In this document: piece by piece, positions 3,201-60,654 of the stretch
Numbering within the stretch: position 1 is the stretch's first letter
Layout: every line of letters starts with the position of its first letter
Assembly: GCA_034780895.1 (NCBI GenBank)
Contig: JAUZTB010000002.1
Coordinates: forward strand, 47,275,016 to 47,339,015
DNA from: Rhynchobatus australiae
Lineage: Eukaryota
Direction of reading: 5' to 3'
Length of the DNA stretch: 64,000 nucleotides
Notes under the pieces: model-generated
Told to the model about the DNA's origin: nothing
Database searches by the model: none
What the model saw: only the letters and a program-made list of their open reading frames with translations
Position numbers and translations under genes: made by a program

Positions 3201-3299
3201 GAGGAAGAAGATTGCAGAAGTGTTCCAGGGAGAGGGGTTCAGTGAAGCTGTCTTGTTATTCTTGGGTCTTTCAGCCCAAAGCTTTTAACATTCATGCTG

Positions 3300-3860
3300 G
3301 GAAACACATAAATCTGTGCCTCCCAGGACTGGATCCATGTGATAGTATCCTCCATGGCCATCTGAATCGACAAATGGGGCCTGCAAAGCAATGTGCGTGG
3401 AATCAATGGCATCCTCTACCATGCCTACAGTCCTGGCAAAATCATGTGCCTTCTCTGTCTGCCACTCTCGGAGAAGGAAGAATGTAATGTCGTTCATTAT
3501 TTTGGAACAGAGAACACAGGTGACCTCCTTGCTAAAAAGTTGAGTGGCGACACTTGTGGCTGCCCCCAGAACACTCGACACAAAAAGATGCATTTCACTG
3601 TGTGTTTGATGTACCTGTGACGAATAAAGATACCTTATCAAAATACATAACATTTCAAATATTTCCAGCTTCAGCCTGGAAGGATTGTATATTAAACATT
3701 CATGGCCACTGTGATATCAACAGCCACTGGCAATGTGATCCTTGCCCTGCTTTCAGATTGCAATTGTGGCTAAAGCAGCTGGCAGATTTTATTTATATAT
3801 CTGCACTGAATTGCAGATATCTTATGTACAGCTCCTTGCTGAGGTGCAGGTGAGAGGTTC
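3300..3860 (-). pseudogene. Degenerate Harbinger (HARBI1-like) DDE transposase
   Basis: Minus strand gives HLSKELYIRYLQF..ICQLL*PQLQSESRARITLPVAVDITVAMN..SFQAEAGNI, then QTEKAHDFARTVGMVEDAIDSTHIALQAP (cf. ALPVAVKVT.ALNF..GSFQ and GAIDCTH); stops and frameshifts; interrupted by a SINE tail. Confidence 0.8.
3543..3639 (+). mobile_element. 5'-truncated SINE (family of 30225-30522)
   Basis: Near-identical to the 3' third of the SINEs at 30225 and 51573. Confidence 0.9.
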
Positions 3861-8829: not shown

Positions 8830-9075
8830 TTGCTCAGTCCTCCAGAGAGAACATCTTATAGAAGCGTATGGCATGGCTAGGTTCTTTATACTTAAACACA
8901 CCCTGTGCCTTGGATGAAGCATGCTAAGCATATTACTTTCTCTGGTGAAGGATGAAGTATTAGCAAATGAGAGGGTCCCATCCACAGCAAAAGATCCTGT
9001 TTTGTCTCAATTTCATGACTTTGTTATTAAAGGGTGGCCTACAGAGAAATAGCCACTGAGACTTGAGTGTAAGGG
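8830..9075 (+). mobile_element. Gypsy-type pol fragment (RNase H-integrase linker)
   Basis: Translates to TAKDPVLSQFHDFVIKGWPTEK (T..DP.L..V...V..GWP motif). Confidence 0.55.
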
Positions 9076-9088
9076 AGANNNNNNNNNN

Positions 9089-9152
9089 AAACACTCACTC
9101 GTATGTATAGGGTGTCCGTAAGTCAGGCATTCATAACCTGGGGAGGACATGC
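9089..9152 (-). mobile_element. Terminal fragment of Tc1/mariner (Tigger-like) MITE
   Basis: Reverse complement resembles the left end of 62081-62380 ('ccccaggttatgaa...ggacacc'). Confidence 0.6.
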
Positions 9153-9239
9153 AACATCTACCACAGAGAGATATTGTTTTGAAGATTTGCTAGTCTAAAA
9201 CGTGTATGTGTTAGAGGTTATCTTTGCTCATCTCCTGTA

Positions 9240-9816
9240 GTGCGGACTCTACAACTACCCACTTAATTGACAACATCTCTCCACAGCTTGCTGAGTTAAT
9301 GAACAGGGACTTGTCCGACACCAGTCTGCTGTTGCCACTGCTGGTTATGCATGGTCTTTTCCTGTAAGAGAAAATGAAGCTCATCAGTGAATGTGTTACA
9401 AGATGTCTAGGTAAGTTCTTACTAAGGGTGACCAGCTGAAAGTGTGGGAGAGTAGGAAGCAGGTGACTTTCTTGGAATACTAGTAAGTGTGTGAGTAGGT
9501 GGTGAATGATAAGAATGTTAGATAGGAATTGTGTTTGATAGAGTTTGTTGTGGAATACATAGCATAGAGCAGCATATAAGGCTAGTTGAGCAAACAGCAG
9601 ATGGGATTTCCTATGGCAATACATCCAAGTCTTCTGGAGTCACTCTTGACATGAATTGTAATCTCCTCCTCCCATTTCTGTTACAATAGGGGTCTGAGGG
9701 GCTTCCTTGGTCGCCGAAAATAGAACACTATTCTCATCCTCAGCCCCATCCACAAAAGTGTACAGAGATATGTAAGGTGATCAAAATGCCTTATCTCATG
9801 TGCTCCCTCCTGGCAT
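9240..9816 (-). pseudogene. Degenerate two-exon Harbinger Myb/SANT-like gene
   Basis: Exon 1 (ATG 9816): ..FVDGAEDENSVLF..RKPLRPLL*QKWEEEI..TWMYCHRKS; acceptor 'ttttctcttacag' then exon 2 from 9361: EKTMHNQQWQQQTGVGQ (cf. EK.AHN....TGGG). Confidence 0.7.
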
Positions 9817-10036: not shown

Positions 10037-11735
10037 AATATAAGAAATAGAAGCAGGAGTAGGTTATTCAACCCTTCGTGCCTGTTCTGCTATTCAAATA
10101 AATCATGGGTGATCTTTCACCTCAGTGCCACTCCGGCCTCCCAGACAACCTGGATCCACTTCAATTCTCCTACCACTGAAACAGGGTCCATCTCCCTGGC
10201 CCTACACTCATCTCTGTAACATCTGGACAGTAAAGACACATACGTTAGACTATTGTTTATTGACTACAGCTCCACCTTCAATATTATAATTCCAAGCAAG
10301 CTCATCTCCAAACTCTGAGACCTGGGATTCAACATCTCCCTCTGCAATTGGATGCTGGACTTTCTGACCAACTGACTGTAATCAGTGAGGATAGGCAGCA
10401 ACACATCCAGCATGATTATTCTCAACACAGGAGCCCCACAAGACTGCGACCTCAGCCCTNNNNNNNNNNNNNNNNNNNNNNNNNNNNNNNNNNNNNNNNN
10501 NNNNNNNNNNNNNNNNNNNNNNNNNNNNNNNNNNNNNNNNNNNNNNNNNNNNNNNNNNNNNNNNNNNNNNNNNNNNNNNNNNNNNNNNNNNNNNNNNNNN
10601 NNNNNNNNNNNNNNNNNNNNNNNNNNNNNNNNNNNNNNNNNNNNNNNNNGTCATTGACTTCAGGAAAGGGGGCAGTGTACATGCACCTGTCTACATCAAT
10701 GGTGCTGAGGTCAAGAGGGTTGAGAGGTCCAAGTTCCTAGGAGTGAACGTCACCAATAGCCTGTCCTGATCCAACCAGGTAGACGCCATGGCCAAGAAAG
10801 CTCACCAACACCTCTACTTCTTCAGTAGGCTAAAGAAATTTGGCATGTCCCCTTTGACACACCAACTTTTATCGATGCACCATAGAAAACATCCTATCTG
10901 GATGCATCACAGCTTGGTATGACTACTGCTCTGCCTAGGACTGCAAAAAACCGCAGAGAGTTGAGGACATAGCCCAGCACATCATGGAAACCAGCCTCCC
11001 CTACATGGATTCCATCTATACCTCTCACTGCCTTGGTGAAGCAGCCAACATAATCAAAGACCCCACCCACCTGGGACATTCTCTCTTCTCTCCTCTCCCA
11101 TTAGGCAGAAGATACGCCTGAGGGCACATACCACCAGGCTCAAGGACAGCTTCTATCCCACTGTGATAAGGCTATTGAATGGTTCCCTCATACGATGAGA
11201 TGGACTATTGACCTCACAATCTGCCATGTTTGACTTTGCACTTTATTGTCTACCTGCAATGCACTTCCCTGTAACTGTGACACTTTACTCTGTATTCTGT
11301 TATTGTTTTTACCCTGTTCTACCTCAATGCAGTCCGTACTACCTCAATGCACTATGTAATGAATTGATCTGTACGAACGGTATGCAAGACAAGTTTTTCC
11401 ACCGTACCTCGGTACAAGTGACAATAATAAACCAATACCAATACTAATTCCTTATGTCTCGACTCCCTTAATATCTAAAAATCCATTGATCTTTGTCTTA
11501 TATTCAGTGACTGAACCTTTTCATCTCTTTTGGGTGAAGAATTACAAAGATTCACCAGGCTCCAGGTAAAGTAATTAATTCCTGTCTCTGTCTTGAATGG
11601 CTGATTCCTTATTTTGAGACTACGACCACCAGTTCTGGATACCCAGTTAGGAGAAACATCAAAATCTCATTCTTCTTTTCAAGCCCCATAGGAAGTCTGT
11701 ACATTTCAATGAGATCACCTCTCATTCTTCAGAAT
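10037..11735 (-). mobile_element. Old CR1 3' fragment split by a Rex1/Babar insertion (pieces 10037-10131 and 11446-11735)
   Basis: Both pieces are colinear with the minus-strand CR1 at 48283-48690. Confidence 0.7.
10132..11444 (+). mobile_element. Rex1/Babar-type LINE, 5'-truncated
   Basis: RT motifs [16 protein letters not shown] and TGAPQ.C.LSP; 3' tail 'gtgacaataataaaccaataccaatac'; colinear with 58422-60040. Confidence 0.85.
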
Positions 11736-18730: not shown

Positions 18731-21354
18731 TCTCTGATACTTTAACCTGACTCAGTAATCAAATACATAAGCTTACCTCCGTAGCAGTAATTACTATTAC
18801 TGCAGCAGCTATCTGACATTAATATGTAAATGTACCCACTTATTAGTAATCAAATTACTTTGTGTTTGACCTAGCAAATAATTAATAAATATATGAGCTT
18901 GGTTCTGACAGATAAGTGAACCTTAAATCTATGGAGGTGTAGGTTATATGTGAGATTTGGGATGAGATTTAATGTGGCATTGACTTGACTGAATAGNNNN
19001 NNNNNNNNNNNNNNNNGTTTATTGAAATCTGCATCAGTAGAGAAGTAGGTAATGCACTGAATCTCAACTGACAGGAATTGTTGTTGCAAGAGGATTTGAT
19101 GAATAGAAGAGCAGATGTTAATGTAGGGTCTAAACTTGAAAAGAAACAGATGTTGTCACAAACAGGTGTATGCAAAATACAAATCTGGAGCTTGGGAGTC
19201 TGTTTAATGTGAGGTTGAGCATACCAATAAGCCAGGGCAGGACCTGTGTATGGTCCAGAAATTAATGCAGGGGATGAAAGCAGTATAATTACTAACAATA
19301 ACCCCAAGCCACTCCAAGTTATGAGCCGAAGCCAAATTTGGCAAATAGTTTTTGACTTGTTGGCAGGTTAGAAGTAGACTATAAAACTTCCTTTATCAAC
19401 ACCTACTACTCAATAGTGATATTGCCAATTTGTAGAATGTAAGGTGGAAAGGCTTGAGTTTGGGAATTGCAGAATTATCAAATTGTTCCAGGATTAACTT
19501 CAACAATGTAAAATTGTATTCATAAACTACAACTTTCTTTCAGTAGAAATAGAAGTGTTGCATGTAAAATGAATTAAAGAAACAAATTACAGCATTCTAA
19601 TATAATAAAATCATCTAATGAGAGGACACAGGTATGGAGTTATGCAAGGTGAACTCAGGACAAGACACCAGGAGGCATTTCTTTCCACGGAGCAGGATCA
19701 AAGCCAAAGGGGACAGGGCAAGAGGTCAAGGGCATACATAGCACATTTAAGTAAGGGTTAAAATATAATCATAGGCAGAAGGTAATATTAGTATTCTGGA
19801 AAAAAAGAATCTGCTTCTCTTCCTCTTTCTCTCAACAATTTATCAATCCTTTCTCTCTTTTTATTCCCCTCCTCCTCCAGATTAAATGGACAGAAATCCT
19901 TGCCATTATTGGAGTAACTTAAACGAAGTGGACAGAACTATTTCAGTGCAAATTTGTTCCCAGAAGTCAGTATCATTTGAATCACTAGAAAATAGCAAAA
20001 GAAAAAGTCAAGCAGCCTGAAAGGACACGCTTGCAGTTGAGCTATATGAGGAAATGAGAGCTTTGTTTGTTTCAGTAAAATATGATTGAAAGTGTACTTT
20101 GGAATAGTGAAACATGATAATGACCATTTTTATTCATGTATCAGTATCTGGGAATAGCTGATGAGGCCAGCATTTATTGCCCATCCTTCACTACTTTTGA
20201 CAAGGTGTTGGTGAGCCACTGCTGTTCTTCTAGTGATAGCACTCCCTCAATTTCTGGATAATTACTTATCATTCTGAAAATTTGGGCAGTTGCTTGCTGA
20301 TGTCAGCCATCTATGCATATATAACATGGCATTGGCATCAATTGTGCCAAATGTGATATCATTCCCATTGCAGCACTGCTTTGGAATGTGCACAGTGCAA
20401 TGACCATAGGGGGCCCTTATACCAGTGCACTCCAACTTCTAGCCCGAGGCTTTTACATAGCACCCCTCGAGGGGCCATAATGACATGTAGTTCCACAGAC
20501 TGCTGGATGGCTTTATTGTGTGACAAGTGAGGTGCTGGGGCTGAGTAAGTTCTTTAAATAAGCATAAGCCCCATATTTTAATGTTATAACAAAGTCTTTT
20601 AATATTAACTCAATATAAAATGGCAGAGGATGCAGCTTGAACCCAAGTAAGGTACACTTGTACACTTGTGTGTCCATAACTATAAGTCTGGTATAATCAA
20701 GTTTTGAGGACTTTGGCTTTTTGATACTTCACCCTGAAATGTTTGCAGGGCAGAGTAGATTTGAAATCCACAGTCTGCAGGTTGTTCTTCTAATTACTGT
20801 TTCTCCATTTAGACAATTCAACCAATTATCCCTAAGTTGGTCTAAACTTTGCCCTTTATCCTCCAACTGATGCTCTTAACTTCCCCTTGATGATGAGCAG
20901 CATTTTCTCAGCACAGATGTGATGCATAATGGGGCAGTTGAGTAAATATTGCATGCACTAAAATAATGAGAGATACTTCCTCATGACCCAATGAGGTGAA
21001 GCTGAAAATATTTTGAATCAAATTGCATCATTACCAGTCCTTATTCACCCACTGTAATTGATCCACCATTGCACTAATAGTGGACCAGTCCACACATAAT
21101 GAACATATTAAAAGTAACTGAACATTTAAAATACAGCACAAAGTATTCCCAATCCAAAGCCCTCATTTGAAATATCATTAGCGATCTTTTATCATTAGAA
21201 GGATGTTGAATTCAGTGGAAATAAGAATTGCACCATCTTTTTTTAAAATCTGAGACTAGCAAGTCAGTCTGTTATTAATTACGTTGCTTATTCATCTACT
21301 GGAATTTATCCATTGCTACAATAAATATGATGCATCAGTTATTCATTTATTTGG

Positions 21355-22375
21355 TTTTTGGGGGGGATGTAGGCATTGATAGCAAGGTTAGGATTTATTG
21401 TCCATTTCTAATTGCCTTTGAAAAGGTTGGCGTGAGCTACTTTCTTAAACTTCTATCGCCTTCCAGTGAATTTACTTTCACAACACTGTTGAGGAAAGAG
21501 TTCCAGGATTTATCCCCAGTAATGACGAAGGACTGGTGATGCATGTTCAAGTCAGGCAATAGTGTGTGACTTGCAAAGCAACCAGCAGGTTGTATTTCCG
21601 TGCATTTGCTGCCTGGTCCTTCTTGACAACAGAGGTTACAGACTGAGAGGTTCTGTCAGAGCAGCCAAGACAAATAACTCCAGTTCATCTGTAGATGGTA
21701 CACATCGTGACCATGAACTGCTGGTGGTGGAGGAAAGGAATTTTCAGGATGGTGGATGGGTTACCGATCAAGTTACTTTGTCATGGATGATGTTTAATGT
21801 CTGAGTGTTTTGGAGATACACTTATCCAGAAAAATGGAAAATAGGAATTAACCAGATTGCTTTTGCCCTGCTTTTTGTGTATAGGACATAATTGGGCAAT
21901 TCTCTAGATTGTCAGGTCAATGTTATTATTGCCTAGACGTGTGGCTAGTNNNNNNNNNNNNNNNNNNNNNNNNNNNNNNNNNNNNNNNNNNNNNNNNNNN
22001 NNNNNNNNNNNNNNNNNNNNNNNNNNNNNNNNNNNNNNNNNNNNNNNNNGACGTGTGGCTAGTTCTGAAGTACTACATCTGAGATGTTGCCTGTCCTCTA
22101 GGTTTTACTGTATCTAGTGTTGTGTGGGATGAATCAAGTCATCTAAAGACTGGTGTCTATTATGGTGGGGATGTCATGAGGAACTGGAGATTTCTGGCTG
22201 AACATGTTTTCAGCCTTGTCTTTGATACACTGGTTCTCATCTTTATTGAGGATGGGGAAATTTTTTGAGATGCCTCCTCCTATTAATGGTTCACCACCAT
22301 TCATGACTAGATGTGTCACAGCTGCAGAATTATGATCCGATCTTGTTGGTTGTGGGATCTCTTCCATTGCTGTGG
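21355..22375 (-). mobile_element. Old LINE (CR1/Jockey-group family, probably as 49990-50810), internally deleted
   Basis: 3' signature 'atttattg.ccat...aattgcctttga.aaggt.g..gtgagc', also seen at 20145-20250 and ~35510-35800. Confidence 0.65.
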
Positions 22376-22559
22376 TCATCTATGAAACTACTAACTGTGA
22401 AAGTCATGTATGAAGTGGTGCAGGTAATAGGTAAGAAGTGTAAGGGCCTTTCTTAAGCAGTATGGTTTACTGATGTCACTAGATTCCAAGGTAATTTTAG
22501 AAGGTTGGACATTAAGTAAGTGGATAAGGATAGGAGCAGATGATATGAGAAAGTTTTTA

Positions 22560-24156
22560 ATTGGGGGAGGGCTAATTATGCTGGTATTAGGCAGGAACTT
22601 GGGAGCGTAAATTGGGAATAGAACACTTGCATAGGATTCTGGACAGGTTTGTCCCACTGAGACAGGGAAAGGATGGTAGAGTAAAGGAACCATGGTTGAC
22701 TAGTGAGGTGAAATATTTAGTCAAAAGGAAGAAGGAAGCATACTTAAGGTTTAGGAAGCAAAAAGCAGGTAGGGCTCTTGAGAAATATAAGGTAGCTCGG
22801 AAGAAGCTTAAGAAAGGACTTAGGAGAGCTAGAAGGCCTTGGCAAGTAGAATTAAGGAAAACCCCAAGGCATTCTACAAGTACATGAAGAACAAGAGGAT
22901 GATTAGAGTGAGGGTAAGACTGCTCAGGGATAAAAGGGGAAACGTGCCTGGAGGTGGAGGAGGTAGGGGAGGTCCTTAATGAGTACTTTGTTTCAGTGTT
23001 CGTTAGGGCGAGGGACTTTGATAAATGTAAAGTCAGCGTGGAACAGGCTAACGTGCTGGAGCATGTTCAGTTTAAGAAAGAGGTAGTGTTGGAGCTACTG
23101 AAAAAAAGTTAGGATAGTTAAGTCCTTGGGGCTAGACAGGATATACCCCATAGGTTACTATGGGAAGCAAGGGAAGAGATTGCTGGGTGTTGACGATGAT
23201 ATTTGTGTCTTCCCTGGCCAGAGGATTGGAGGATGGCAAATGTTGTTCCCTTGTTCAAGAAAAGTAATAAGGATAATCTTGGGAATTATAGACCAGTGAG
23301 TCTTACGTCAGTGTGGGCAAGCGATTNNNNNNNNNNNNNNNNNNNNNNNNNNNNNNNNNNNNNNNNNNNNNNNNNNNNNNNNNNNNNNNNNNNNNNNNNN
23401 NNNNNNNNNNNNNNNNNNNNNNNNNNGCAGGATTCTGAGCAGAGTGGAAGAACAGAGGGATCTTTGGGTCCAAGTTCATAGATCCCTCAAAATTGCCACG
23501 CAATCTGATAGGGTGGTTAAAAAGGCAACTGTGCTGATGTGCTGGCCTTAACTAATCAGGGGACTGAGTTCAAGAGCTGCAAGGTAATGTTGCAGCTCTA
23601 TAAAACTCTGTTTAGACCGCACCTAGAGTATTGTGTTCAGTTCTGGTCACCTCATTATAGGAAGGATGTGGAGGGTGCAGAGGAGATTTACCAGGATGCT
23701 GCCTGGATTCGAAAACATGTCTTATGAGGAAAGGTTGAGCAAGCTCAGGCTTTTCTCTTTGGAGCATCGCTGGATGAGAGGCAACTTGATAGAGGTGAAT
23801 AAGATTATGAGGGGCATAAATAGAGTGGACAACCAGCACCTTTTCCCCAGGGCAGCAATGGCCAATACCAGAGGACATCGCTTCAAGGTCAGAGGAGGAA
23901 AATTTAGGGGAGATGTCAGAGGTGGGTTTTTTACACAGAGAGTGATGGGTGCCTGGAATGCACTGCCGGGGGTGGTGGTAGAGCCTGATACAATAGGGAC
24001 ATTTAAGACACTCTTAGATTGGCACATGCATGTAAGAAAAATGGAGGTTTATGGGCTGCGTAGGAGGGAAGTGTTAGCTCGATCATGGAGTAGGTTTATG
24101 TGGGTCAGCACCACATCATGGGACGAAGGGCCTGTACTGTGCTGTACTATTCTGTG
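22560..24156 (+). mobile_element. CR1 LINE ORF2 (RT) remnant with 3' end
   Basis: EPWLT..VKRKKEAY, PEDWRMANVVPLFKK..GNYRPVSLTS, RPHLEYCVQFWSPHYRKDV, FFTQRV.GAWNALP, CR1 tail. Confidence 0.95.
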
Positions 24157-24379
24157 TAAGTGTTGCTTGCTCTTGATATGCAGTTTAGAATATGGCTATA
24201 GTTTGGCTTTTTCCTATCCATAAGGTATGATGCCGCTCAGTATAAAGTAAGATTGCCAGATCTACAATCCAGATAGTTGTTTTTACCACAGTAAAGTCAT
24301 TTGTTGCTAGTGTTAACCAGAGCAATACTACTGGGCTTTCATGCAGGATATAGTCTTTTTAGTCAAGTAAGGACCACTT

Positions 24380-25745
24380 TATCACATATCCCTTAGAATC
24401 TGCAGCATGTGTAACGTTAGTATAATGCTAAACTTGTGCCACATTATTTACAAAAGATTTGTATCTTCAGGAACCACAAAACACTGTTCTACTTTAGTAT
24501 TCTTGATTTTGTGATGAGGCCAAAGAATTTTACATACCCTCCTTTCATCAATTTGAGGAGTTAGCATATGAAATATTTGTATTTCTCACTTTTATCAGGT
24601 CATGCTTTCTGAAGTGACTGGTTATTATCTTTGTGCAGTATAGTTATATCCACCACAGCCACTTCATTACCTTTAGAAAAGATCAAGTCAGCTTTACACA
24701 GTGTTCCATCTGTTGTACACGGATGTGTTTCTACACATGTTGTCCATCCATATTTCATCAACTTCAGTTTTGGGGATCAGGACTGTTCGGTTCATATTGA
24801 GTGCATCAGGGATGGCTGCGGCCTTCAGCCATGTGATGAGGGGGTTGGCAATAGCAATTCACTCTCCTTAGATAGTAGGTTTAGGTCTTCCTTCTTAATT
24901 GTGTCTGAGCCTGACATGTTCTACTCTGAGATTTACAAATAGTTGGTTCTCTTTTCAGCCCCTCTGGTCTTGCCAGTATACAGGGTCTTCTTCGTCTTTT
25001 AATGGTGTTCTTTTGCTCATTATTGTATTGGGGTTTGCTCTCCACCGGGCCAAGTCCCAAGGCAAAGTTCTCTGCATTCCTCTTTTCCCTGAATAGTGTC
25101 TCTGCTTGTTGCAACAAGGTCTCAACTCAGTGGGCTCCTTCCTTCCAAAGGAGTCACTTTTGGTCTTAGTGGTGCTTGAGTGTTTTCTGTACTCTCATGC
25201 ATAGTGGTTTGGTCTTCACTCTCCTCAGCCATAGTCTAGTTCTAGACTGCTGTAGTCCTGTTAAATGTGTGCTTTTTTTCTGAGATCTGTTTGTTGGTTT
25301 TTGGTGTCAGGATTTACTGACCTCCAAGTTGATGCTTTAATACTCTTTAAATATATTCTTTAGTTCCAGCAAGAAAGCTGTCTTCTCATGCGTTCAATTG
25401 GACTTTCTCCTGACTTTTTGTGTGGTCCAGGATTATTACTGTTCTCTTTGCATTCCTCAGCATAGCATAGCAATATCCTTCATTATGACAATAACCACTT
25501 TCTGTATCAAAGGGTTCCTTACAAACCTCACAACTGAAGTTCTACTTGCCCCCCAGTCCTTTAGGTATTTGTATTTTAGGTAGTGTCATCTAATTTCACA
25601 GTGCTCTCCAATCTTGCCGCATGACAAGCAAATGTTTTGTTTTTAATCTAATCTGACAATGCTTTTGAGGTGCGTCTGGACCAGACTGTCGTGCAGATTT
25701 TGTTGCATCTGTTGTACCACAGCTTTCGCTGTGGAGCTCAAATGT
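24380..25745 (-). mobile_element. Degenerate R2-type non-LTR retrotransposon (3 zinc fingers, Myb, RT start, RLE endonuclease), RT core deleted
   Basis: Minus strand, frameshifted: YNRCNKIC..THLK; ICLSCGKIGEHCEIR*HYLKY; FSCEVCKEPFDTESG..LRNAKR; N*THEKTAFLLEL...KTNKQISEKK; SGSDTI..ITWLKAAAIPDALNMNRTVLIPK; KYGWTTCVETH..LCKADLIFSKGNEVAVVDITI..SLQKA*PDKSEKY..VKFFG. Confidence 0.85.
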
Positions 25746-26799
25746 CACCTTGTGTTACAACTTTAAGTTTGGCACTTCATTTTTAGATATTCCAGCTGCT
25801 CTTCTGGCATGGCCTTGTATCATTGATCCATTTAGATGCCCAATAGTGGAAGATATTAAAAAAAGAGCTAGATTCTTTGCACTAAAGGTTGTGTTCTTGA
25901 AAAAAACTTTTTGATGTTGTGACTACCAGAGAAATTTCAAGGTGCAAGATGAGAAACTACTTAGTAGATGATACTTCATGTAAGAGTAGCTTAATTAGTT
26001 AAAACCTGTTCTTTTTAATGAAGAGTTATCCTCAAAAGCTGACAATAACAAGTGGAATGAAGAAATGAGAAAATCAAAAACTGAAAGTGAATTTTAAAGA
26101 GCAGACGTAGGAAATAAATTGTTGAAGGCTGCTTATATCAATTGCACATAGAACTTCTGTTAATATAAGTATTTGCTAATTTATCCTTCCATCAGAATAT
26201 TTATGTGAATTGTGAATTGCTAAAATAGTTTACATTTGATACTTAGTGTTAANNNNNNNNNNNNNNNNNNNNNNNNNNNNNNNNNNNNNNNNNNNNNNNN
26301 NNNNNNNNNNNNNNNNNNNNNNNNNNNNNNNNNNNNNNNNNNNNNNNNNNNNGTTTACATTTGATACTTAGTGTTAATGTACAGAGTATGTTTGGTTGAT
26401 GATTAATAAGGAAATATTAATGGTGTGATTAGTTAATAAACAGCTTCAAGTTCATAATTTCCCAATTAACTGCTATATCTAGAATGACATAGAATGTAGA
26501 GCACAGAAACAGACCACTCAGCCCAATACCAGTGCTTATGTTCCACATTAACCTACTCCTACACCCCTTTATTTCACCCTTTCATTATTAGTACATCCAC
26601 TGAGTACCTTATCCCTCCTGTACTTAGAATATTTACTACTATATATTACCATGCATCTGTGCTTGGGACTCCATCCAGAGGAAAGAAACATTAACCAAGG
26701 GAAGGGAGATGGGTGCAATTTCAATATTGTCAAACCAGAGCTTTATGGATTATACCTTGAGGCCTTGTATTTTGTTGCATTTAGTAGGTTGACTGTGAT

Positions 26800-27592
26800 C
26801 TAATTGGTAAATTCATTTATTATTGTTACATGTACTGACGTACATGAAAAACATTGTTTTTCATGCCATCCATACAGATAATTTCATTACAACTGTGCTT
26901 TGAGGTAGTAAAGGGGAAAATAATAACAGAAAGCAGTATAAAGCATTACAGTTACAGAGAAGGTATAGCACAGGCAATCAATAAGGTGTGAGACCAAAAC
27001 AAAGTAGATTGTGAGGTCAACAGTCCATCTTATCATATTTAGGGGACCATTCAATAACTTTATAACAGCGGGATAGAAGCTGTCCTTGAGCATGGTGGAA
27101 TGTGCTTTCAGGCTTTTGTATCTTCTGCCGGACAGGAGGGGAGAGAAGAGAGAATATCAAGGGTGGGTGGGGTCTTTGACTATGTTGGCTACTTTACTGA
27201 GGCAGCAATAAGTATAGACAGAGTCCATGAAGGGCAGGCTAGTTTCCATGATGTGCTGAGCTGTGTCCACAACTCTCTGCAGTTTCTAGTAGTCTCAGGC
27301 AGAGCAGTTGCCATATCAATAGGATGCTTTCTATGGTGCATCGATAAAAATTGGTGAGGGTTAAAGAAGCCTCCTGAGGAAGTAGAGACATTTGTGCACT
27401 TTCTTGGTCATGGTGTCTACATGGTTGGACCAGGACAGTATATTGACGTTCGCCCCCAGGAACTTGAAGCTTTCAACCTTTTTGACCTCAGCACCGTTGA
27501 TGTAAACAGGAACACCCCTCTTCCTGAAGTCAATGACCAGCTCTTTTGCTTTGCTGACATTGAGGGAAAGGTTGATGTCATGACACCATGCT
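26800..27592 (-). mobile_element. Rex1/Babar-type LINE 3' fragment
   Basis: Reverse complement colinear with 59200-60040 (LKDSFYPAVI.LLN, KTKELVIDFRK). Confidence 0.85.
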
Positions 27593-28467
27593 GCTAATCT
27601 AGCAATGATAAAAGGACTCTGCAGAACAAATACAAATCAGTTATTTTCTCTGGTGAGAGAATCAAGAATAAGGTCATACAATCATAAAATTGACTTCTGC
27701 CATTCTGGAAGGAAATTTTGAAATACTTTATCTGCACAAAGTGTAGTGGAGAGCTGGATTTTGTAACCTAGAAAGCTGTGGCTGCCAGAGCAATTTAAAT
27801 CTTCAGAAGAGAAATTGATAGATTTTTTCTTGGATAAAAGTCCAACCTCAATAAGTAGAGTTGAAATCACAATCGTCTATGATCAAATAAATGGGAAAAC
27901 CATCTCAAGGAGACAGTTTTGCTCCTGTTCCTTTGCTTCTTCATTGGGTGCCTCTCGCTTAAACTGCACACTCTCTGCAAAGATTAGCCTTGGAGAGCGC
28001 CTGTGGCTAGCAGCCCAGCTTTAACAGAGCGGGTGGTGGTTTTGTGCAAATTGTTAACAAAATAAAATGGTAAATGTAAAACCGTTAGAGCCGGCCAGAA
28101 TTTTGTGCAAACAAATTTTCCAGGACTTGAGTGATAATTCTCCAGAAGGCTCCTAAATGAGGACTTGGAGACTTGCCTAGTTCTTTGGAACTAAAGTTTA
28201 GCTCTCCACAGCTTTCTTTCATATTTTATTTTGAGCCCTGCTTGCCAAAGATGGTGAAAGCCTTTGAATTATATCCTCAGTTTTCATATCATGTGGATTA
28301 AAAAGCCATCATCATTTTGATATAGTCACTTAATCAGAGCTTGTAAATGAAATATGCTGTTATTGTTAATTCATCATAAACATTAAATATAGAGGGTGGT
28401 TTGGGGGCATCTTAATTTATATGCCTTGCCCTATTTTACACTTTGTTGAACCTTCTCGTGTACTGGA

Positions 28468-28634
28468 TGTCATGGTTCTGAGTACTGGCCCTCGATTTGG
28501 CTCCTTCGATGCCTTGTTGTACAGCACATGGATTCCATGCTGATTGCATAACGACACACACCTGAGCCCCATCAGAGGCCTAGCATAAGTACCTGGGTTT
28601 CTCTAGCACTAGTTGCCAGAGTATTGGTCAACCT
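28468..28634 (+). mobile_element. LTR family A, copy 1 (cut by gap)
   Basis: Starts TGTCA; highly similar to 29684-29857. Confidence 0.75.
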
Positions 28635-28734
28635 NNNNNNNNNNNNNNNNNNNNNNNNNNNNNNNNNNNNNNNNNNNNNNNNNNNNNNNNNNNNNNNNNN
28701 NNNNNNNNNNNNNNNNNNNNNNNNNNNNNNNNNN

Positions 28735-29363
28735 TGCTTACGTCAACAGAAGATAAAGAACGTCATGACGCTGTTGTTGAAACAACCAGTCGGAGTCAGT
28801 CTGAAGGAGAGAGAGACAGAAGAACGAGAGTGAGACACCAACCTGCTTGTTTTCTCTGTCGATGGATGAGAAACAATAACTGCCTGTCCCTGCAATCCAC
28901 GTATGGATTGTTGAGAGTAATCTGGTGGAAAACAGGTATTTGGTGTGGATGACCACGGCACGAATGCTCTAGGGTGTGGCAGACATGTTGAAATGAAGGA
29001 GTGGAGTTCGCTTGGTTGTTGACCTGTAGAAGGAAACAGGTAGTTGGTGTGGACGGCCACGATACTCTCTATTGTCTCTCTCTGCATCTACATTTATCTC
29101 CAGACAACGGTGGTTGTTGAAGAAGCTTTTACTCATGTTTCACCTTATGGCTTGCTGAGCTAAACTTTAAGAACCATTCCTGGACGTGGAGTTTGGGAAT
29201 TTGCCACACACACATGACAAGTTTAGTTAGCTTTTGGGAGTTCATGTTCAGGGTTTAACATTCTAACATTTTTACTTTTATTTTACTTATTATCATAAGT
29301 AGTTATTAATAAAGTAGTTTTATACATGTCTCGGTGTGTTTCTTTTGTTGCTGGTACGTAACA
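28735..29363. mobile_element. Probable solo LTR, family B (start hidden in gap)
   Basis: Non-coding, internal direct repeats ('ggaaa.caggta.ttggtgtgga.g.ccac'), AATAAA near 29310, ends 'tggtacgtaACA'. Confidence 0.55.
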
Positions 29364-29454
29364 CTATCTTTACATGTGACAATAATGAAGCAATACCAAC
29401 ACCAAGTACTTGCAGTGGAGTACTGTGTAGGTGCAACAATGTCAGACCTGCCAG

Positions 29455-29655
29455 AACATTTTTACACAGAGAGTAATGGGTACCTGGAATGTGCTGCCAG
29501 GGGCGGTGGTGCAGGCAGACACATTTGAGGTGTTTAAGAGGTTCTTAGGTAGGCACATGAATAGGCAGAGAATGGAAAGATATGGACCATGTGCAGGCAG
29601 AAGGGATAAGGTGACCATAGCTTAATTAGTTTGGCACAACTTTTCCTGGTCTCTG
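29455..29655 (+). mobile_element. CR1 3' fragment
   Basis: FTQRVMGTWNVLPG. Confidence 0.85.
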
Positions 29656-29683
29656 TATTGCAGCTCAGAGGTGCAGCTAGTAG

Positions 29684-30094
29684 TGTCATGGTTCCGAGTA
29701 CTGGCCCTCAGTTTGGCTCCTTTGATGATGCCTTGTTGTCCAGCACATGGATTCCATGCTTGACCGTTTGCATAATGACACACACCTGAGCCCCATCAGG
29801 GGCCTAACATAAGTACCTGGGTTTCTCTAGCACTAGTTGCCAGAGTATTGGTTAACCTTTGGGTATACTTTGACTCTGGGCTGCTTAGAGTGGTCAACTC
29901 TAGAGCAGTCCTGTGTTCTCTGTTCCTGTTTGAATATCCAGTTCATGCTGGGATTCCTTCTCAGATCTCCAAGGCAAGATTCCTTCCAGTTGCTGCCCTT
30001 GTCTGGTCCTGAGGAAGTATCCTGACTCCAGTCTTGTACCAGTGTGCCACATTTGGGTTCTCTGTGAGTTTGCTCTTTGCTCAACACTGTGACA
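29684..30094 (+). mobile_element. LTR family A, complete copy (411 bp)
   Basis: Inverted termini TGTCA...TGACA; non-coding; duplicated at 28468. Confidence 0.8.
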
Positions 30095-51865: not shown

Positions 51866-53354
51866 CCATTTCTGCTCTGAGCTGCAAGCAGAATGGAATC
51901 TAACATATCTTGCATATGATTTTCCAGTAAGTTACAACGAATTATAAGCAAATCTTTCACAGTGCATTTGGTACCTGAATTTATAATATCTTTATCTGAG
52001 TAGTGAGGTTTCTGATGTCAATATGTTACAATGATTTATATTCTCTTTGATTTCTCATCTTACATTTTAACATGTCTTCTGACATTTGTGTCCTTCAACA
52101 TGGTGAGCAAGTTGCCTCATCCAAGATGTTGATAGCCTTTTAAAAAAAATAATCATTCAACATTGAAACTTTGCTGAGATTTGCCAATAGAATTAATTTG
52201 TCTTCAGACCACTAGTATCAGGAACTTGAACACCAAGTAGCAATCCCACAACTTTATTCTATCTGATAGTATATGTATGTCAATGATTTAGTATCAGTGA
52301 AGAAAAGCACTGGAAAGAATAGCCGTGTTATCATTGTCCTAACTTGAAACAACCCCTGATAAGGGGCTTGTTACATCCTTAGTTTCTTCCAACTGTCCTC
52401 TTGGCATTCTTGGCATTCAGCCTAGATGAGAGAAATCTTGCTTCTTTTGTTTATATTGAAGTAGAATCAAACTGTTACAAAACTGAGGTGGAAAAAGGCA
52501 AGTCTTGTGCTTATTGTAAGGTATACTTTAGTAAAAGCTTTGAGTGAAATGTCAGATTATCTGACATTATTTCTGTTTTAATGACACATGAAGTATACAG
52601 AGCTAAATATTTTGGGATTGTAAGTTTTTCTTGCCATCAAGAATTGCTCACTCCTTTCTACACAAAAGCCACTGGTACTTAACTGTAACCATTATTCTCA
52701 GCCAGAATTTAACATTGCAGCATGANNNNNNNNNNNNNNNNNNNNNNNNNNNNNNNNNNNNNNNNNNNNNNNNNNNNNNNNCCTGCTTCCCTGCCTTCTT
52801 GGCTATTGCCTTGCAAATTTCTTCTTTTCACATCTGTCTGAGAGGACTTGCATTGGGACATGTTTGCAGATTGGTTTCCTTTGCCCCAAAACCTTTGAGT
52901 GGGCCACAAGAAAGCATGAGAGATATATTGTTTAAATAGCACTTTATATATTTAGCATTAAAAAGACTAAACATCATAACTTTTCTTTTTTTTCTTCCTC
53001 CCATGTTTTCATAAGGAACATGAAGGTGCAGAAAATGCTTCAGACTATGATCTTGGGAATTATGTGAGGATCACACCTAGGATTCTCCATCTGTAATCCT
53101 ACGGGATGAATTATTGACTGCTGTGACTGCTATTGCACTCTCAGACCATGGTTCAGCCCAGAGGATGACTGAGGTATAGCAGTCAACATCTTTTAGGGAA
53201 AGTGTGGATGATGCTGGGTGCATGCTGGGTAGTTAGATTAATATTATTACCTAAAGTATCCTTTGTCTGACCACAAATAAGTAATCCCATGATAGCTACA
53301 ACTAAGGGAAGTTTTCCCCTTAATTTATTCCCTGTACACTCAAAACTTTGTGGC

Positions 53355-53908
53355 CAAATTCTGCTCTAATGCCATTTACAAGTTGACAGATGACACCAGC
53401 GTAGTGGGTCAGATCTCAAACAACAAGGCAGTACAGGAAGGAGATCAAGAGCCCAGTAGCATGGTGTGAAAACAACAACCTTTCCCTCAATGTCAGCAAA
53501 ACAAAAGAGCTGGTCATTGACTTCAGAAAGCAGGGCAGAGTATACACCAATGTTGCTGAGTGGAGATTGTTGAGAGCTTCAAGTTCCTAGGTGTAAATGT
53601 CACCAACAATTTGCCCTGGCCAGCCACATGGATCCTATGGCCAATAAAGCTCACCAGCACCTCTACTTCCTCAGCAAGCTAAAGAAATACGGCATATCCC
53701 TGATGACACTCACCAATTTTTACAGATGCACCATAAAAAGTATCCTATCTGGATTTATCACAGGTTGGTATGGCAACTGCTCTGCCCAAGACCACAATAA
53801 ATTGCAGAGAGTTGTGAATGTAGCCCAATCCAGCACACAGACCAGGGTCCCCTCCATTGACTCTGTCTATACTTCCCGCTGCCTCGGGAAAACAGCCATC
53901 ATAATTAA
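53355..53908 (+). mobile_element. Rex1/Babar-type LINE RT fragment
   Basis: IYKLTDDT, NLSLNVSKTKELVIDFRK, AHQHLYFL.KLKK..LTNFYRCTI.SIL. Confidence 0.85.
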
Positions 53909-55615: not shown

Positions 55616-56812
55616 GTTCCCAATTGGAGAACTGTTGTGCTGATACATTTGGTCTTATGTTGTCATCCTCCACATAACGTAATCAGGGTGGATTTCTGAG
55701 CAACAACAACAAGGGCAAGCAAATGCAAATGGTTCTGTAAAATATGAATTTCAGAGACAGAAAGTAGCACATAACAAATGTCACACAACTTTTGTGTGGA
55801 TTTCACTGCTGCATGCTGTTCTTGCAAGCTCAGCAAATCAGATTTCTTATATGAGCACCTCCGCTCCTGCAATAGATGTTATCTCCACTAATAGTTGCTG
55901 TCAGTGCAAGTTCCTCCTAATTGGGTTCGAAATATCCTTAGTTACAAGGTATTCAGGAAAGATAGAGAAGAGAAGAAAGAAGGGAAATGTCAGTATTGAT
56001 TTAGGAGAATATGGCAGTTCTGGAAAGAAGGACGTTCTGCAACAATTATGGAAAGAATCTGTCCATTTAAAATTAAGAAACAATCAAGATATGATTACAC
56101 TGCTGACAATACACCAACTAGTGGGAAGGATATGCAGGAACACGTTTACAGGAAAGTTGCAGAGATGTGGAAAAGCTATACAGTGATAATGATGGGGGAT
56201 TTCAACCATCCAAATATTGATAGGATATGGCTAACATTCAGGGAAAAGAAGGGGAGAAATTTACGAAATGTGCTCAGGAGAACATTCTTAGTGTTTGTCA
56301 GTCTCAACACAGAAGGCAGTATTGCAGGACTTGATTCTGGGAAACGAGCCAGGCCAAGTGGAGAAGGTGTCAAGAAAACAAGTAAAAAGAAGCAAGAAAA
56401 GGCCAACCGGTCCATCAAGATTGCCTTTCCAGTCAATGACATCATGATATCATAAAGTTTAGAATAACTATGAAAAAATAATGTAGACATCTCTACATTA
56501 AAATATACAGTGAAGGGCAAATTTCAGTGGGAAGAGAATAGATCTGACCAGGTAGATAGGCAGGCAAAACTGCAGCTGAACAATCAGAGACTTGTATAAT
56601 GGAATTGTTTCAGCTACATTCCAGGTACATTCCCATGAAGCAGAAGGGTAGGAAATTTAAAGACAGAGCTCTCTGGATGACTGAAAAGACAGAAAGTAAA
56701 ACAGATCAGAAGAAAAAGAACATATGACAGATTAAGTTGTGAACACAATTGAGAATAAGGCTGATTACAAAAAGTTCAGAGTGAAAGTATTTAAGGAAGT
56801 AAGAGAGAAAGA

Positions 56813-57381
56813 ACATAGAACATTACAGCACAGTACAGGCCCTTCGGCCAACGATGTTGTGCAGAGATGTTATCCTGCTCTAAGATCTATCTAACCCTTC
56901 CCTCCCACATAGCTCCCTATTGCTCTATCATTCATGTGTCTATCTAAGAGTCTCTTAAACATCCCTAATGTATCTGACCCCACAACCTCTGCTGGCAGTG
57001 TGTTCCACACACTCACCACTCTTTGTGTAAAAAACTTAACCCTGACATCCCCCTTATATTTTCCTCCAATCACCTTAAAATTACGTCCCCTCGTGTTAGC
57101 CATTGTCACCCCGTGAAAAAGTCTCTGACTGTCCACTCAATCTATGCCTCTTATCATCTTGTACACCTCTATCAAGTCACCTCTCATNNNNNNNNNNNNN
57201 NNNNNNNNNNNNNNNNNNNNNNNNNNNNNNNNNNNNNNNNNNNNNNNNNNNNNNNNNNNNNNNNNNNNNNNNNNNNNNNNNNNNNNNTCTATGCCTCTTA
57301 TCATCTTGTACACCTCTATCAAGTCACCTCTCATCCTCCTTCTCTCCAAAGAGAAAAGCCTTAGCTCACTCAATCTATCAT
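56813..57381 (-). mobile_element. Younger CR1 3' fragment inserted in the older CR1
   Basis: RMRGDLIEVYKMIRGID..KFFTQRVV; flanked by an 8-bp duplication GAGAAAGA (56805-56812 / 57382-57389). Confidence 0.9.
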
Positions 57382-58144
57382 GAGAAAGAGCATGAGAAAA
57401 AACTGGCAGCAAACATTAAAGGGAATCCAAAAATATTTTATAGGTATATGAACATGATAAGGATTGTAAGATTAATGTTGGGCCAAATCTGAGATCAAAA
57501 AGGAAATCTATTCATGAAGGGTAAAAAAAAGGGATCCTTATTCCTTGATAAAAACTGATATAGATGCTGCTGAGTATCATCAAAGGAAGATAATTTTTTC
57601 ATTCCGGATGAGCTAAAAATCAATGTAAAGAAGATGCTGCATGCTCTTAGAGAGGATAAGTCACTTGGTCCAGATGAGATGCATCCTAAGTTGTTGAGGG
57701 TAGTGTTTATAGAGGCCCTGGCCCTAATCTTCTGGACATCTATAGATTCAAAGGTGGGGCCTTATCACTAGAAAATTGTGAATGGTACAGCTTTGCTCAG
57801 ACAAAGGTGTAGGGATAAACCCACTATCCATGGATTAGTCAGTTTAATGTCAGTAGTGAAGAACATTTAATAAACAATAATTTGGAACAGAATTATCAGT
57901 CATGTGGACAAGTGCAGATTGATTAAAGAAAGCTGCCATGGATTTGTTAAAGGCAAATCATGTCCAACTAACTTGATAGAATTTTATTAAGTAACAGAGA
58001 GGACTGATAAAGGAAGTGTAGTTGATGTGGTTTACATGGACTTGAAAAAGGCATTTGATGGGCTTGTCATGAAATAAATTAGATCAACAGCATGAATGGA
58101 AAAATAGTCAAATAACAGGAATCAAGAGGTAGNNNNNNNNNNTT

Positions 58145-58270
58145 AAAGAACTGCAGATGCTGGGAATCTGAAACAAAAACGTCACATACTGGAAACACTC
58201 AACACAACAGGTAGCATCTGTGCAAAGAAGAACAAAGTTAACATATCAGGCTGAAGGCACTTCATCAAAT
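58145..58270 (-). mobile_element. Penelope pseudo-LTR fragment
   Basis: 'ctgcagatgctgggaatctgaaacaaaaac...cttcatca'. Confidence 0.65.
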
Positions 58271-58421
58271 TGTTTATTTGGACATGAAGTAAAAAGAGGA
58301 AGTCTATATCAGTAGATTTGAACCCCAGGGGTTGGTACTGGGACCCTTGCTTTTCTTAACATATCTATGGTTCAGACTTTAGTGTACAGGCCACACTTTC
58401 CAATTTCCATATTTGCAGATG

Positions 58422-60040
58422 ACAGCCTTCAATGCACCAAAACCCACAATCACTGTTGCAGACATCGGAACAGTCTTCCAGAGAGTGAACCCACAGAAAG
58501 CATCTGGCCCAGATGTTGTCCCGGGCCATGTCATTAGATCCTGTGCAGATCAGCTGGAGGGGTATTTGCAGACATATTTAACCTCTCCCTGCTTCAATCT
58601 GAAGTTCCCACCTGTTTTAAGCCTACTATCATCCTGGTACCTAAGAAAAATAAGGTAATGTGCCTTAATGACTACCAACCGGTGGCTCTGACATCCACCA
58701 TAATGAAATGTTTCAAGAGGCTGGTCATGGCACACATCAACTCTGGCCTCCAAGACAACCTCAACCCACTGCAATTTGCCTACCGCCAAAACAGGTCCAT
58801 GACAGATGCCATCTCCCTGGCCCTGCACTCATCCCTGGAGCATCTGGACAGTAGTGACACCGACATTGTTTATCGACTACAGCTCCGCCTTCAATACTGT
58901 AATTCCAAGCAAACTCATCTCCAAATTCCTAGACTTGGGACTCAACACCTCCTTTTGCAATTGGATCCTTGACTTCCTGACCAATGGACTGCAATCAGTA
59001 AGACTAGGCAGCAACACCCCCACCACGATTATCCTCAAAACTGGTGCCCCACAAGGCTGCGTCCTCAGCCCTCTATTTCCTATACACTCATAACTGCATG
59101 GCCAGATCCTGCTCTAACTCCATTTACAATTTTGCCAATAACACCACCGTAGTGGGCTGAATCTCAAATAATAATTAGAGTACAGGAAGGAGATAGAGAG
59201 CTTAGTGGAATGGTGTCATAAAAATAACCATTCGGACAATGTCAGCAAAACAAAAAAGCTGGTCATTGACTTCAGGGAGAGGGGTGATGGGCACGCACCT
59301 GTCTATATCAATGGTGCTGAGGTTGAGGGAGTTGAGAGCTTCAGGTTCCCAGGAGTGAACATCACTAATAGTCTGTCCTGGCCCAACCACATAGATGCCA
59401 CAGCCAAGAAAGCTCACCAGTGCCTCTACTTCTTCAGGAGGCTAAAGAAATTTGGCATGTCCCCTTTGACCCTCACCAATTTTTATCGATGCACCATAGA
59501 AAGCATCCTANNNNNNNNNNNNNNNNNNNNNNNNNNNNNNNNNNNNNNNNNNNNNNNNNNNNNNNNNNNNNNNNNNNNNNNNNNNNNNNNNNNNNNNNNN
59601 NNNNNNNNNNNNNNNNNNNNNNNNTCTATCTACACTTCTCGCTGCCTCAGTAAAGCAGCCAACAAAGAAGCAGCCCCATCCACCCAGGACATTCTCTCTT
59701 CTCGCCTTCCCATTGGGCAGACGGTACAAAAGCCTGAAAGCACATACCACCAGGTTCAAAGACAGCTTCTATCCTACTGTTATAAGACTATTGAACAGTC
59801 CCCTAGCATGATAAGATGGACTCCTGACCTGACAATCTACCTCACTATGGCCTTGCACCTTACTATCATCTGCCACTGCACTTGCTCTGTAACTATAACA
59901 CTTTTTTCGGCATTCTGTTATTGTTTTCCCTTGTACTACCTCAATGCACCATTGTAATGAAATAATCTATATGGATGGCATGCAAAACAATGTTTTTCAC
60001 TGTACCTCGGTGCACGTGACAATAAGAAACCAATTTACCA
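58422..60040 (+). mobile_element. Rex1/Babar-type LINE (RT domain to 3' end)
   Basis: [64 protein letters not shown]; frameshifted. Confidence 0.92.
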
Positions 60041-60654
60041 ACTTGGATTGCACAAGACTTGAAGGCATATGAAGAGGATGACAATTGACATCAAGGAGAA
60101 AGGAGCAGGCTGGTGGAATAGGTGGATTTGGGGCAGATAAAACTGAATTCTAAGAAATACAACATGTTATGCTTTTGATAGGAAGAATGAGAAGAGAAAG
60201 TAAAAACTTGAACACACAATTCAAAAAAATGTACAAGACTACAGAGATCTGGAGTTATGTGTGTAAATGTATTGCCATGGGTTGCAATAGAGGCAAGTCC
60301 AGCTTGAGTTTTCAAAAGAGATAAGTTCAAAGTAGCAGGGTAAGTTGAGGAACAGTATCCTTTACAAATCAAAGCAAAGAACACAAGAGCAAGTATTCAT
60401 TTAGACCTTGTTGGTGTATTGTTTTCAGTTCTATGTATTACATTTTGGGATATATATAATGGCCCTAGTGAGAGTGCAGAAGAGATTTACCAAATAATTC
60501 CAGGGATGAGGGAGAAGACTGAAGGAGCTAGGGTTCTTTTTTGTGGAACAGAAGATTTTGCAAAGGGATCTGAAAGAGGTAAAATCATGAACGATATAAA
60601 TAGATAGAAATAAATTATTCCTATTGTTGGAGGATTCATGAACCAGAGGACATA

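Follow-up and report, generated by a model that had tools for sequence, protein, structure and literature searches.

An old, partly deleted R2 retrotransposon copy outside the rDNA of Rhynchobatus australiae

R2 is a mobile element that normally inserts only into ribosomal RNA genes, at a conserved site in 28S. Its protein binds the 3' end of the RNA, cuts a DNA strand and starts reverse transcription at the cut. As described in the available parts of PMC3414825 and PMC13580325, R2 is co-transcribed with rRNA and cleaved by a 5' ribozyme that usually leaves about 28 nt of 28S sequence, insertion occurs by target-primed reverse transcription, and 5' truncation is frequent. For cartilaginous fish, R2 lineages A and D have been published (available parts of PMC12247875 and PMC13188248). 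Among the rows of Table S2 of PMC13188248 that we compared, 28S sequence lies on both sides of the element in 12 of 13 cartilaginous-fish entries and in 7 of the 8 elasmobranch entries of lineage-A type. The white-shark element R2-1_CCar, with a near full-length ORF, has 28S on neither side in the same table and may itself be an off-rDNA copy. Lineage-A R2 proteins are under development for site-specific gene insertion, and the strictness of their natural targeting is described as open in the available part of PMC13580325.

R2 sequences away from 28S have been described in other animals. Stray non-rDNA copies were reported in five of eight Drosophila species (available part of PMC2718515), and non-specific R2 families are known from a planarian, a fluke and sponges, with no vertebrate named in the available parts of PMC5035012 and PMC13188248. 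Our literature search, with most subscription journals outside its scope, found no study of dispersed shark R2 copies.

We analysed a stretch of 64,000 nucleotides from R. australiae (hereafter the window) and found that its minus strand from 25716 to 24379 is an old, dead and partly deleted R2 copy outside rDNA. Translated in this direction, it gives zinc fingers, a Myb domain, reverse transcriptase (RT) motifs 0 and 1 and a restriction-like endonuclease, which is the R2 order, and all the motifs that a preliminary description of this DNA had quoted are present in the translation in the same place and order. The parts of the fossil and its immediate surroundings are the following, with the intact bamboo-shark R2 protein P0027 as template:

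25750..26800, minus strand: 5' flank, without a match to a ribozyme core, a 28S leader or the R2 N-terminus
25650..25716, minus strand: weak remnant of zinc finger 3 (ZnF3), seen in the translation, first Cys lost and frameshifted
25571..25630, minus strand: remnant of ZnF2, CCHC type, third Cys a stop and last Cys a Tyr
25443..25538, minus strand: remnant of ZnF1 with the downstream LRN.KR motif, both His ligands lost
25272..25411, minus strand: Myb domain remnant, conserved Trp a stop, one frameshift
24915..25271, minus strand: linker, possibly with an RT -1 remnant, about 112 codons long (P0027: 231)
24766..24914, minus strand: RT motifs 0 and 1 (frameshift-aware z 6.3 and 9.0; profile iE 5e-5)
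24755..24770, minus strand: internal-deletion junction, at about 24760 (frameshift-aware alignment, profiles and spanning contigs)
24379..24758, minus strand: remnant of the restriction-like endonuclease, reaching the end of the former ORF (profile iE 1e-17)
24158..24378, minus strand: probable 3' UTR remnant or flank, assigned by position, without a 28S downstream target
22590..24157, plus strand: neighbouring LINE, which we take to be CR1-like, a high-copy repeat whose 3' tail adjoins the fossil (self-matches ending at 24153-24157)

The zinc fingers have mutated metal ligands, the ORF is interrupted, and the copy is inert today. The endonuclease remnant has retained its catalytic D, D and K and carries internal stops and one frameshift. 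At the junction, template residues from about 611 to 1158 are missing (about 550 codons, or 1.65 kb), so that RT motifs 0 and 1 are retained while RT motifs 2-7, the thumb, the linker and the CCHC knuckle have been deleted. The preliminary description was silent on this loss of the RT core, thumb and knuckle, which came to light through the alignment performed here. Moreover, the stretch between Myb and RT motif 0 has about half the template length, and further deletions probably occurred there.

A frameshift-aware alignment to R2 proteins had been proposed as a check of the R2 reading; with P0027 as template, three blocks (N-terminal, RT motifs 0-1 and endonuclease) each scored above all of 30 shuffled versions of the aligned 2.1 kb, which served as the null. 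The values were 85 against a null maximum of 46 (z 10.4) for P0027 residues 130-335, where the convincing part runs from ZnF1 to Myb (25532-25251), 69 against 53 (z 6.3) for residues 557-610 at 24914-24754, and 126 against 42 (z 30.5) for residues 1161-1288 at 24755-24388. Under the same procedure, residues 640-1100 were absent (score 35, z -0.5). Matches in the linker/RT -1 slot were at chance level, with 41 of 200 and 12 of 60 in-slot shuffles reaching the score. ZnF1 was also recovered by tblastn with P0027 residues 227-258 (E 0.007) and by its profile (iE 0.0027), the latter as the top match in the window, and the Myb profile likewise had its top match in the whole window here (iE 0.038). 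The endonuclease frame, with X at stops, matched the solved R2 proteins 9nl3, 9dou (R2Tg) and 9nl2 at E 4e-5 to 8e-4, aligning ungapped over 79-80 aa, while its three other PDB matches all had E of at least 1.1; P0027 itself matches the solved vertebrate R2 proteins at E 1e-184 or better. On the other hand, we obtained no PDB match for a mixed-frame N-terminal fragment, no Pfam match in any of the four fossil fragments, no scored candidate out of 27 when the endonuclease frame was used in a word-based protein search, and no confirmed case among 553 and 84 pattern matches in two metagenome scans.

Lineage-A R2 has three N-terminal zinc fingers, of CCHH, CCHC and CCHH type, and the preliminary description counted three here. 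ZnF1 is clear, whereas the profiles of ZnF3 and ZnF2 gave no match to their remnants in the window, and shuffles within the expected slots scored as high as the real sequence in 33 of 200 cases for ZnF3, in 8 of 200 for ZnF2 and in 3 of 100 for both together. ZnF3 by itself is thus at chance level and ZnF2 is marginal. The distance from the HLK of ZnF3 to the first Cys of ZnF2, 11 codons, is the same in P0027 and in the stingray element R2-1_HSa, and ZnF2 matches R2-1_CCar at 10 of 20 ungapped positions by eye (available part of its sequence). Based partly on this spacing and this match, a three-finger arrangement is likely.

We searched 1.84 billion cluster representatives with a profile and obtained 20 matches, 19 of which align as R2-type endonucleases; best matches in another clade with restriction-like endonucleases, which the preliminary description had named as grounds for abandoning its reading, were therefore not what we found. 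The top-scoring match, P0005, was rejected as a bacterial-type repeat artefact, with eight stretches and TetR and phage-tail domains. It was left out of both trees that we computed, and so were P0046, which had no anchor match, and P0025 and P0026, which share a cluster with P0018. In the endonuclease tree of 39 rows, which contains no named Utopia, NeSL, HERO or R4 outgroup, the fossil falls inside a starred clade (100/98) whose 13 rows are 11 named shark proteins, the fossil and one unnamed protein; the second tree has 25 rows. Within the clade, the fossil stands beside degraded fragments (92/82, unstarred) on a long end branch of 0.96, and its protein is about 33-44% identical to its nearest kin. 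An AU test rejected its grouping with bird R2 (p-AU 0.007), which sets its sub-lineage apart from the solved vertebrate R2, and did not reject its grouping with R2-1_CPu/P0027 (p-AU 0.245). Together with the R2-type endonuclease and the Myb domain, the starred shark clade bears out the proposed lineage-A R2 origin and the affinity to cartilaginous fish. Utopia elements, which have zinc fingers without Myb and target U2 snRNA genes (available part of PMC12247875), were considered and rejected: Myb is present in the fossil, and Rfam found no U2 in the window.

We then compared the fossil with published elements by eye, over 400 characters per sequence and with the endonuclease sequences not included. 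Over these 400 characters P0027 is identical to R2-1_CPu, which is 28S-flanked on both sides (PMC13188248, available part of Table S2). Across ZnF1 and Myb, the fossil shares 37 of 75 positions with R2-1_HSa and 26 of 75 with P0027, and across Myb 21 of 42 with R2-1_HSa; across RT motifs 0-1 it shares 22 of 48 with the dogfish element R2-1_SAc and 16 of 48 with P0027. In the available part of PMC13188248, R2-1_HSa, R2-1_SAc, R2-1_SCa and R2-1_STig all have 28S on both sides, and 28S-flanked members of the sub-family are listed from stingray, dogfish, catshark, zebra shark and basking shark. These four elements, R2-1_CMax and R2-1_CPu resemble the fossil in finger spacing and in the order of zinc fingers, Myb, RT and endonuclease, and distinctive residues of ZnF1, Myb and RT motifs 0-1 are common to the fossil and the elasmobranch lineage-A elements. 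The latter are 28S-flanked and mostly have long ORFs (same source, available part), whereas the fossil is outside rDNA, 5'-truncated, without about 550 codons and full of stops.

Since its nearest published kin, from stingray, dogfish, catshark and zebra shark, are 28S-flanked on both sides, we favour an off-target origin: the fossil is probably a relic of an elasmobranch lineage-A R2 family with active masters in 28S rDNA. The preliminary description had put forward either an off-target insertion or a lineage of relaxed specificity, and the first is the better supported, considering the 28S-flanked kin and the grouping with R2-1_CPu/P0027 that the AU test left standing.

The flanks bear on this reading in several ways. 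Rfam returned no match at gathering score in the 64 kb, and at E up to 10 it gave five weak matches over 19000-30000, none of them rRNA and the best (E 0.28) at chance. The halves of the 28S target had no match at three mismatches, and the 28S target score did not exceed that of shuffles in any of eight flank tests, including those past the neighbouring LINE; for 24158..24378, 166 of 500 shuffles reached the best 28S downstream score. The earlier observation that no 28S sequence is visible on either side is therefore sustained. Upstream of the fossil, the flank tests found no 28S leader, two patterns for an HDV-like ribozyme core gave no match in the 5' flank, and P0027 residues 1-131, aligned frameshift-aware to the upstream slot, had their score reached by 23 of 30 shuffles. 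Because ribozyme core, 28S leader and R2 N-terminus are all unmatched upstream, the copy looks 5'-truncated, and truncation or decay would explain the missing ribozyme and leader. Since 28S insertion and a ribozyme were both tested for and neither was found, we class the locus as an R2-derived fossil and not as a canonical R2 insertion. The same results also weigh against an off-target origin, as no 28S leader or junction that would tie the fossil to an rDNA co-transcript has been kept.

Alternatively, the copy may have been inserted correctly into 28S and moved out later by recombination or repair, with the flanking 28S subsequently deleted or split off by the LINE. Neither true end of the fossil can be identified, large deletions have occurred, and the LINE tail adjoins the 3' side, as such a history would allow. 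The tail of the LINE stops about 220 bases beyond the old stop codon of the fossil, at 24157, and thereby conceals the true 3' junction; at this position, all four sequencing runs have thousands of contigs and loose ends. However, no 28S signal was found in the 64 kb, even past the LINE, although the R2 coding remnant is still recognisable, and we consider displacement from rDNA very unlikely. Under the favoured off-target origin, an R2 protein would have primed at a non-28S site or at an existing break and halted before the 5' end; fixation would have followed, and after it internal deletion, point decay and insertion of the LINE at the 3' side. As regards host genes, we found no exon at the Pfam curated cut-off in 150 of the 214 non-repeat ORFs of at least 58 aa (up to position 40069).

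Contigs of four organisms (A, B, D and E) cover the locus, with no cover over 24172-25035 in E and over 24172-24387 in B, so that these stretches were left aside; organism A, possibly the source sample, does not count as independent. Single contigs span the deletion junction with 0 differences in 814 positions in A, 32 in 1044 in B and 95 in 1768 in D. Being spanned by contigs of all three, the deletion is no assembly error and is older than the split of A, B and D. This age would also suit a non-autonomous, SIDE-like family, in which the internal deletion was already present in a mobile derivative and its junction is common to other copies. SIDEs are known for Drosophila R2 (available part of PMC3414825), the deletion is old and spanned in three of four runs, and the dispersed fragment P0010 likewise joins N-terminal sequence to an endonuclease. 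However, P0010 is joined at another position, possibly through splicing in the gene model, and no sister copy with the same junction occurs among the contigs listed. Moreover, SIDEs consist of a ribozyme joined to the 3' end and lie in rDNA (available part of PMC3414825), whereas the fossil has neither ribozyme nor 28S insertion and retains much coding sequence. We regard a SIDE-like origin as extremely improbable.

The divergence of the element was similar to that of the 5' flank in the three comparisons made (3.05 against 2.70%, 5.37 against 5.26% and 4.58 against 5.34%; Fisher p 0.86, 1.0 and 0.58), with a little flank included in the element-side sequence of D and E. Since the locus is common to four organisms and diverges like its flank, the fossil is old and neutral. 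Exaptation was ruled out, given stops and frameshifts throughout and a rate equal to that of the flank. For the organisms that carry it, the fossil is usable as a shared-insertion marker. Summed contig depth, which is here no measure of copy number, rises two- to threefold at 25756-25827, just upstream of ZnF3, in all four runs; the small rises at 24532-24747, 25612-25683 and 25756-25827 may represent short paralogous matches.

R2 fragments are also dispersed in shark genomes. In gene models whose flanks were not seen, we found at least 12 distinct bamboo-shark fragments, each on a contig of a different length; 11 of these contigs measure between 50 kb and 6.4 Mb. Two catshark fragments lie on contigs of 40 and 302 kb. 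Six dispersed fragments form a starred short-branch group in the endonuclease tree (98/97). By eye and within the available parts of the published sequences, the dispersed P0012 shares 43 of 51 positions with the catshark element R2-1_SCa and 31 of 51 with P0027, and the N-terminus of P0010 matches the zebra-shark element R2-1_STig; two members of the R2-1_CPu group are likewise found on contigs of 6.4 Mb and 53 kb. As the fragments match two sub-families, each with rDNA-resident members, at least two sub-families have left strays. In one case, P0017 (Chiloscyllium punctatum, 1.87 Mb contig), the gene model joins an R2 endonuclease fragment to the MPN domain of Abraxas-1 (E 1e-40), which places an R2 stray beside or inside a host gene; the fusion itself is probably a mis-prediction. 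Beyond sharks, R2 fragments occur on long records of a turtle (P0022, 127 Mb) and a bird (P0015, 1 Mb contig), whose flanks were likewise unseen.

These fragments raise the question of relaxed specificity, that is, of a leaky or dual-mode sub-family inserting regularly outside 28S, whose masters may temporarily have been located away from rDNA. Such a sub-family would account for fragments lying nearly all on long contigs and for the starred group of six, and the white-shark entry without 28S (available part of PMC13188248) and the loss of specificity in planarian and fluke (available part of PMC5035012) lend it further plausibility. The number of bamboo-shark fragments exceeds the pattern of flies, in which copies are seldom found outside the locus, and this, like the placement of the fossil beside degraded copies in the tree, counts against a purely off-target reading. 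However, the same sub-family has extant 28S-flanked members from stingray to basking shark (available part of PMC13188248), and unequal loss rates make extant locations misleading (available part of PMC13580325). Among the contigs listed, one tiling series per run covers the fossil in all four runs; that no second long series appears at 80% likeness speaks weakly against relaxed specificity and against young sister copies at 80% likeness or more, whereas older sisters would escape detection. Relaxed specificity therefore strikes us as rather unlikely. The expectation of the preliminary description that many dispersed copies would indicate a non-specific lineage proved too simple, as the sub-families of the dispersed fragments also have 28S-inserted members; the co-occurrence of strays and rDNA members is what an off-target origin predicts and makes a dedicated non-specific lineage unneeded.

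Comparison with other known systems adds to this picture. Like the non-rDNA copies of Drosophila (available part of PMC2718515), the fossil is incomplete, dead, outside 28S and related to rDNA-specific families, but those copies differ by 1-2% from their masters, whereas the fossil, at about a third to under a half identity to its kin, is fixed in several organisms. R2NS-1_SMed and R2NS-1_CSi (PMC5035012) and the sponge homologues (PMC13188248) are, like the fossil, R2-type sequences at non-28S sites; in the available parts of these sources they appear as entire families, with dispersed copies that are young and in some cases more than 98% identical to the consensus, while the fossil is one old copy with 28S-inserted kin.

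The shark mutation rate is low, at 7e-10 per generation (CI 1.4-14.1e-10; available part of PMC10587355). Strays outside rDNA would have no promoter context, would escape the turnover of rDNA repeats and would decay slowly in sharks, and should therefore accumulate. The fossil and the dozen bamboo-shark fragments suggest that shark genomes keep a long, countable record of R2 strays, from which target sites can be read. With 11 of 12 bamboo-shark fragments on contigs of at least 50 kb, shark lineage-A R2 may be unusually leaky. Going further, one could propose that elasmobranch lineage-A R2 has long worked in a dual mode, with masters in 28S and many insertions outside rDNA, and that the fossil is an early record of it; we hold this proposal to be doubtful. 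If true, relaxed specificity would be seen for the first time in a vertebrate R2 lineage, whose fossils would then provide a natural map of off-target sites for a class of proteins used in gene insertion.

Finally, the window holds other decayed elements. LINE copies with RT remnants, 70-80% alike, lie at 10130-11442, 26803-27600, 53326-53908 and 56000-60041, and we take them to belong to the CR1 and L2 families. An ORF remnant at 3288-3716 on the minus strand, without a Pfam match, looks by eye similar to what we take to be a PIF/Harbinger transposase. Broken frames at 8900-9700 on the plus strand, without a Pfam match in the one frame tried, resemble by eye what we assume to be the Ty3/Gypsy pol segment before the integrase. 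A 100-N gap within 26228-26377 is bordered by two identical stretches of 25 bases and is probably an unmerged overlap and not missing DNA.
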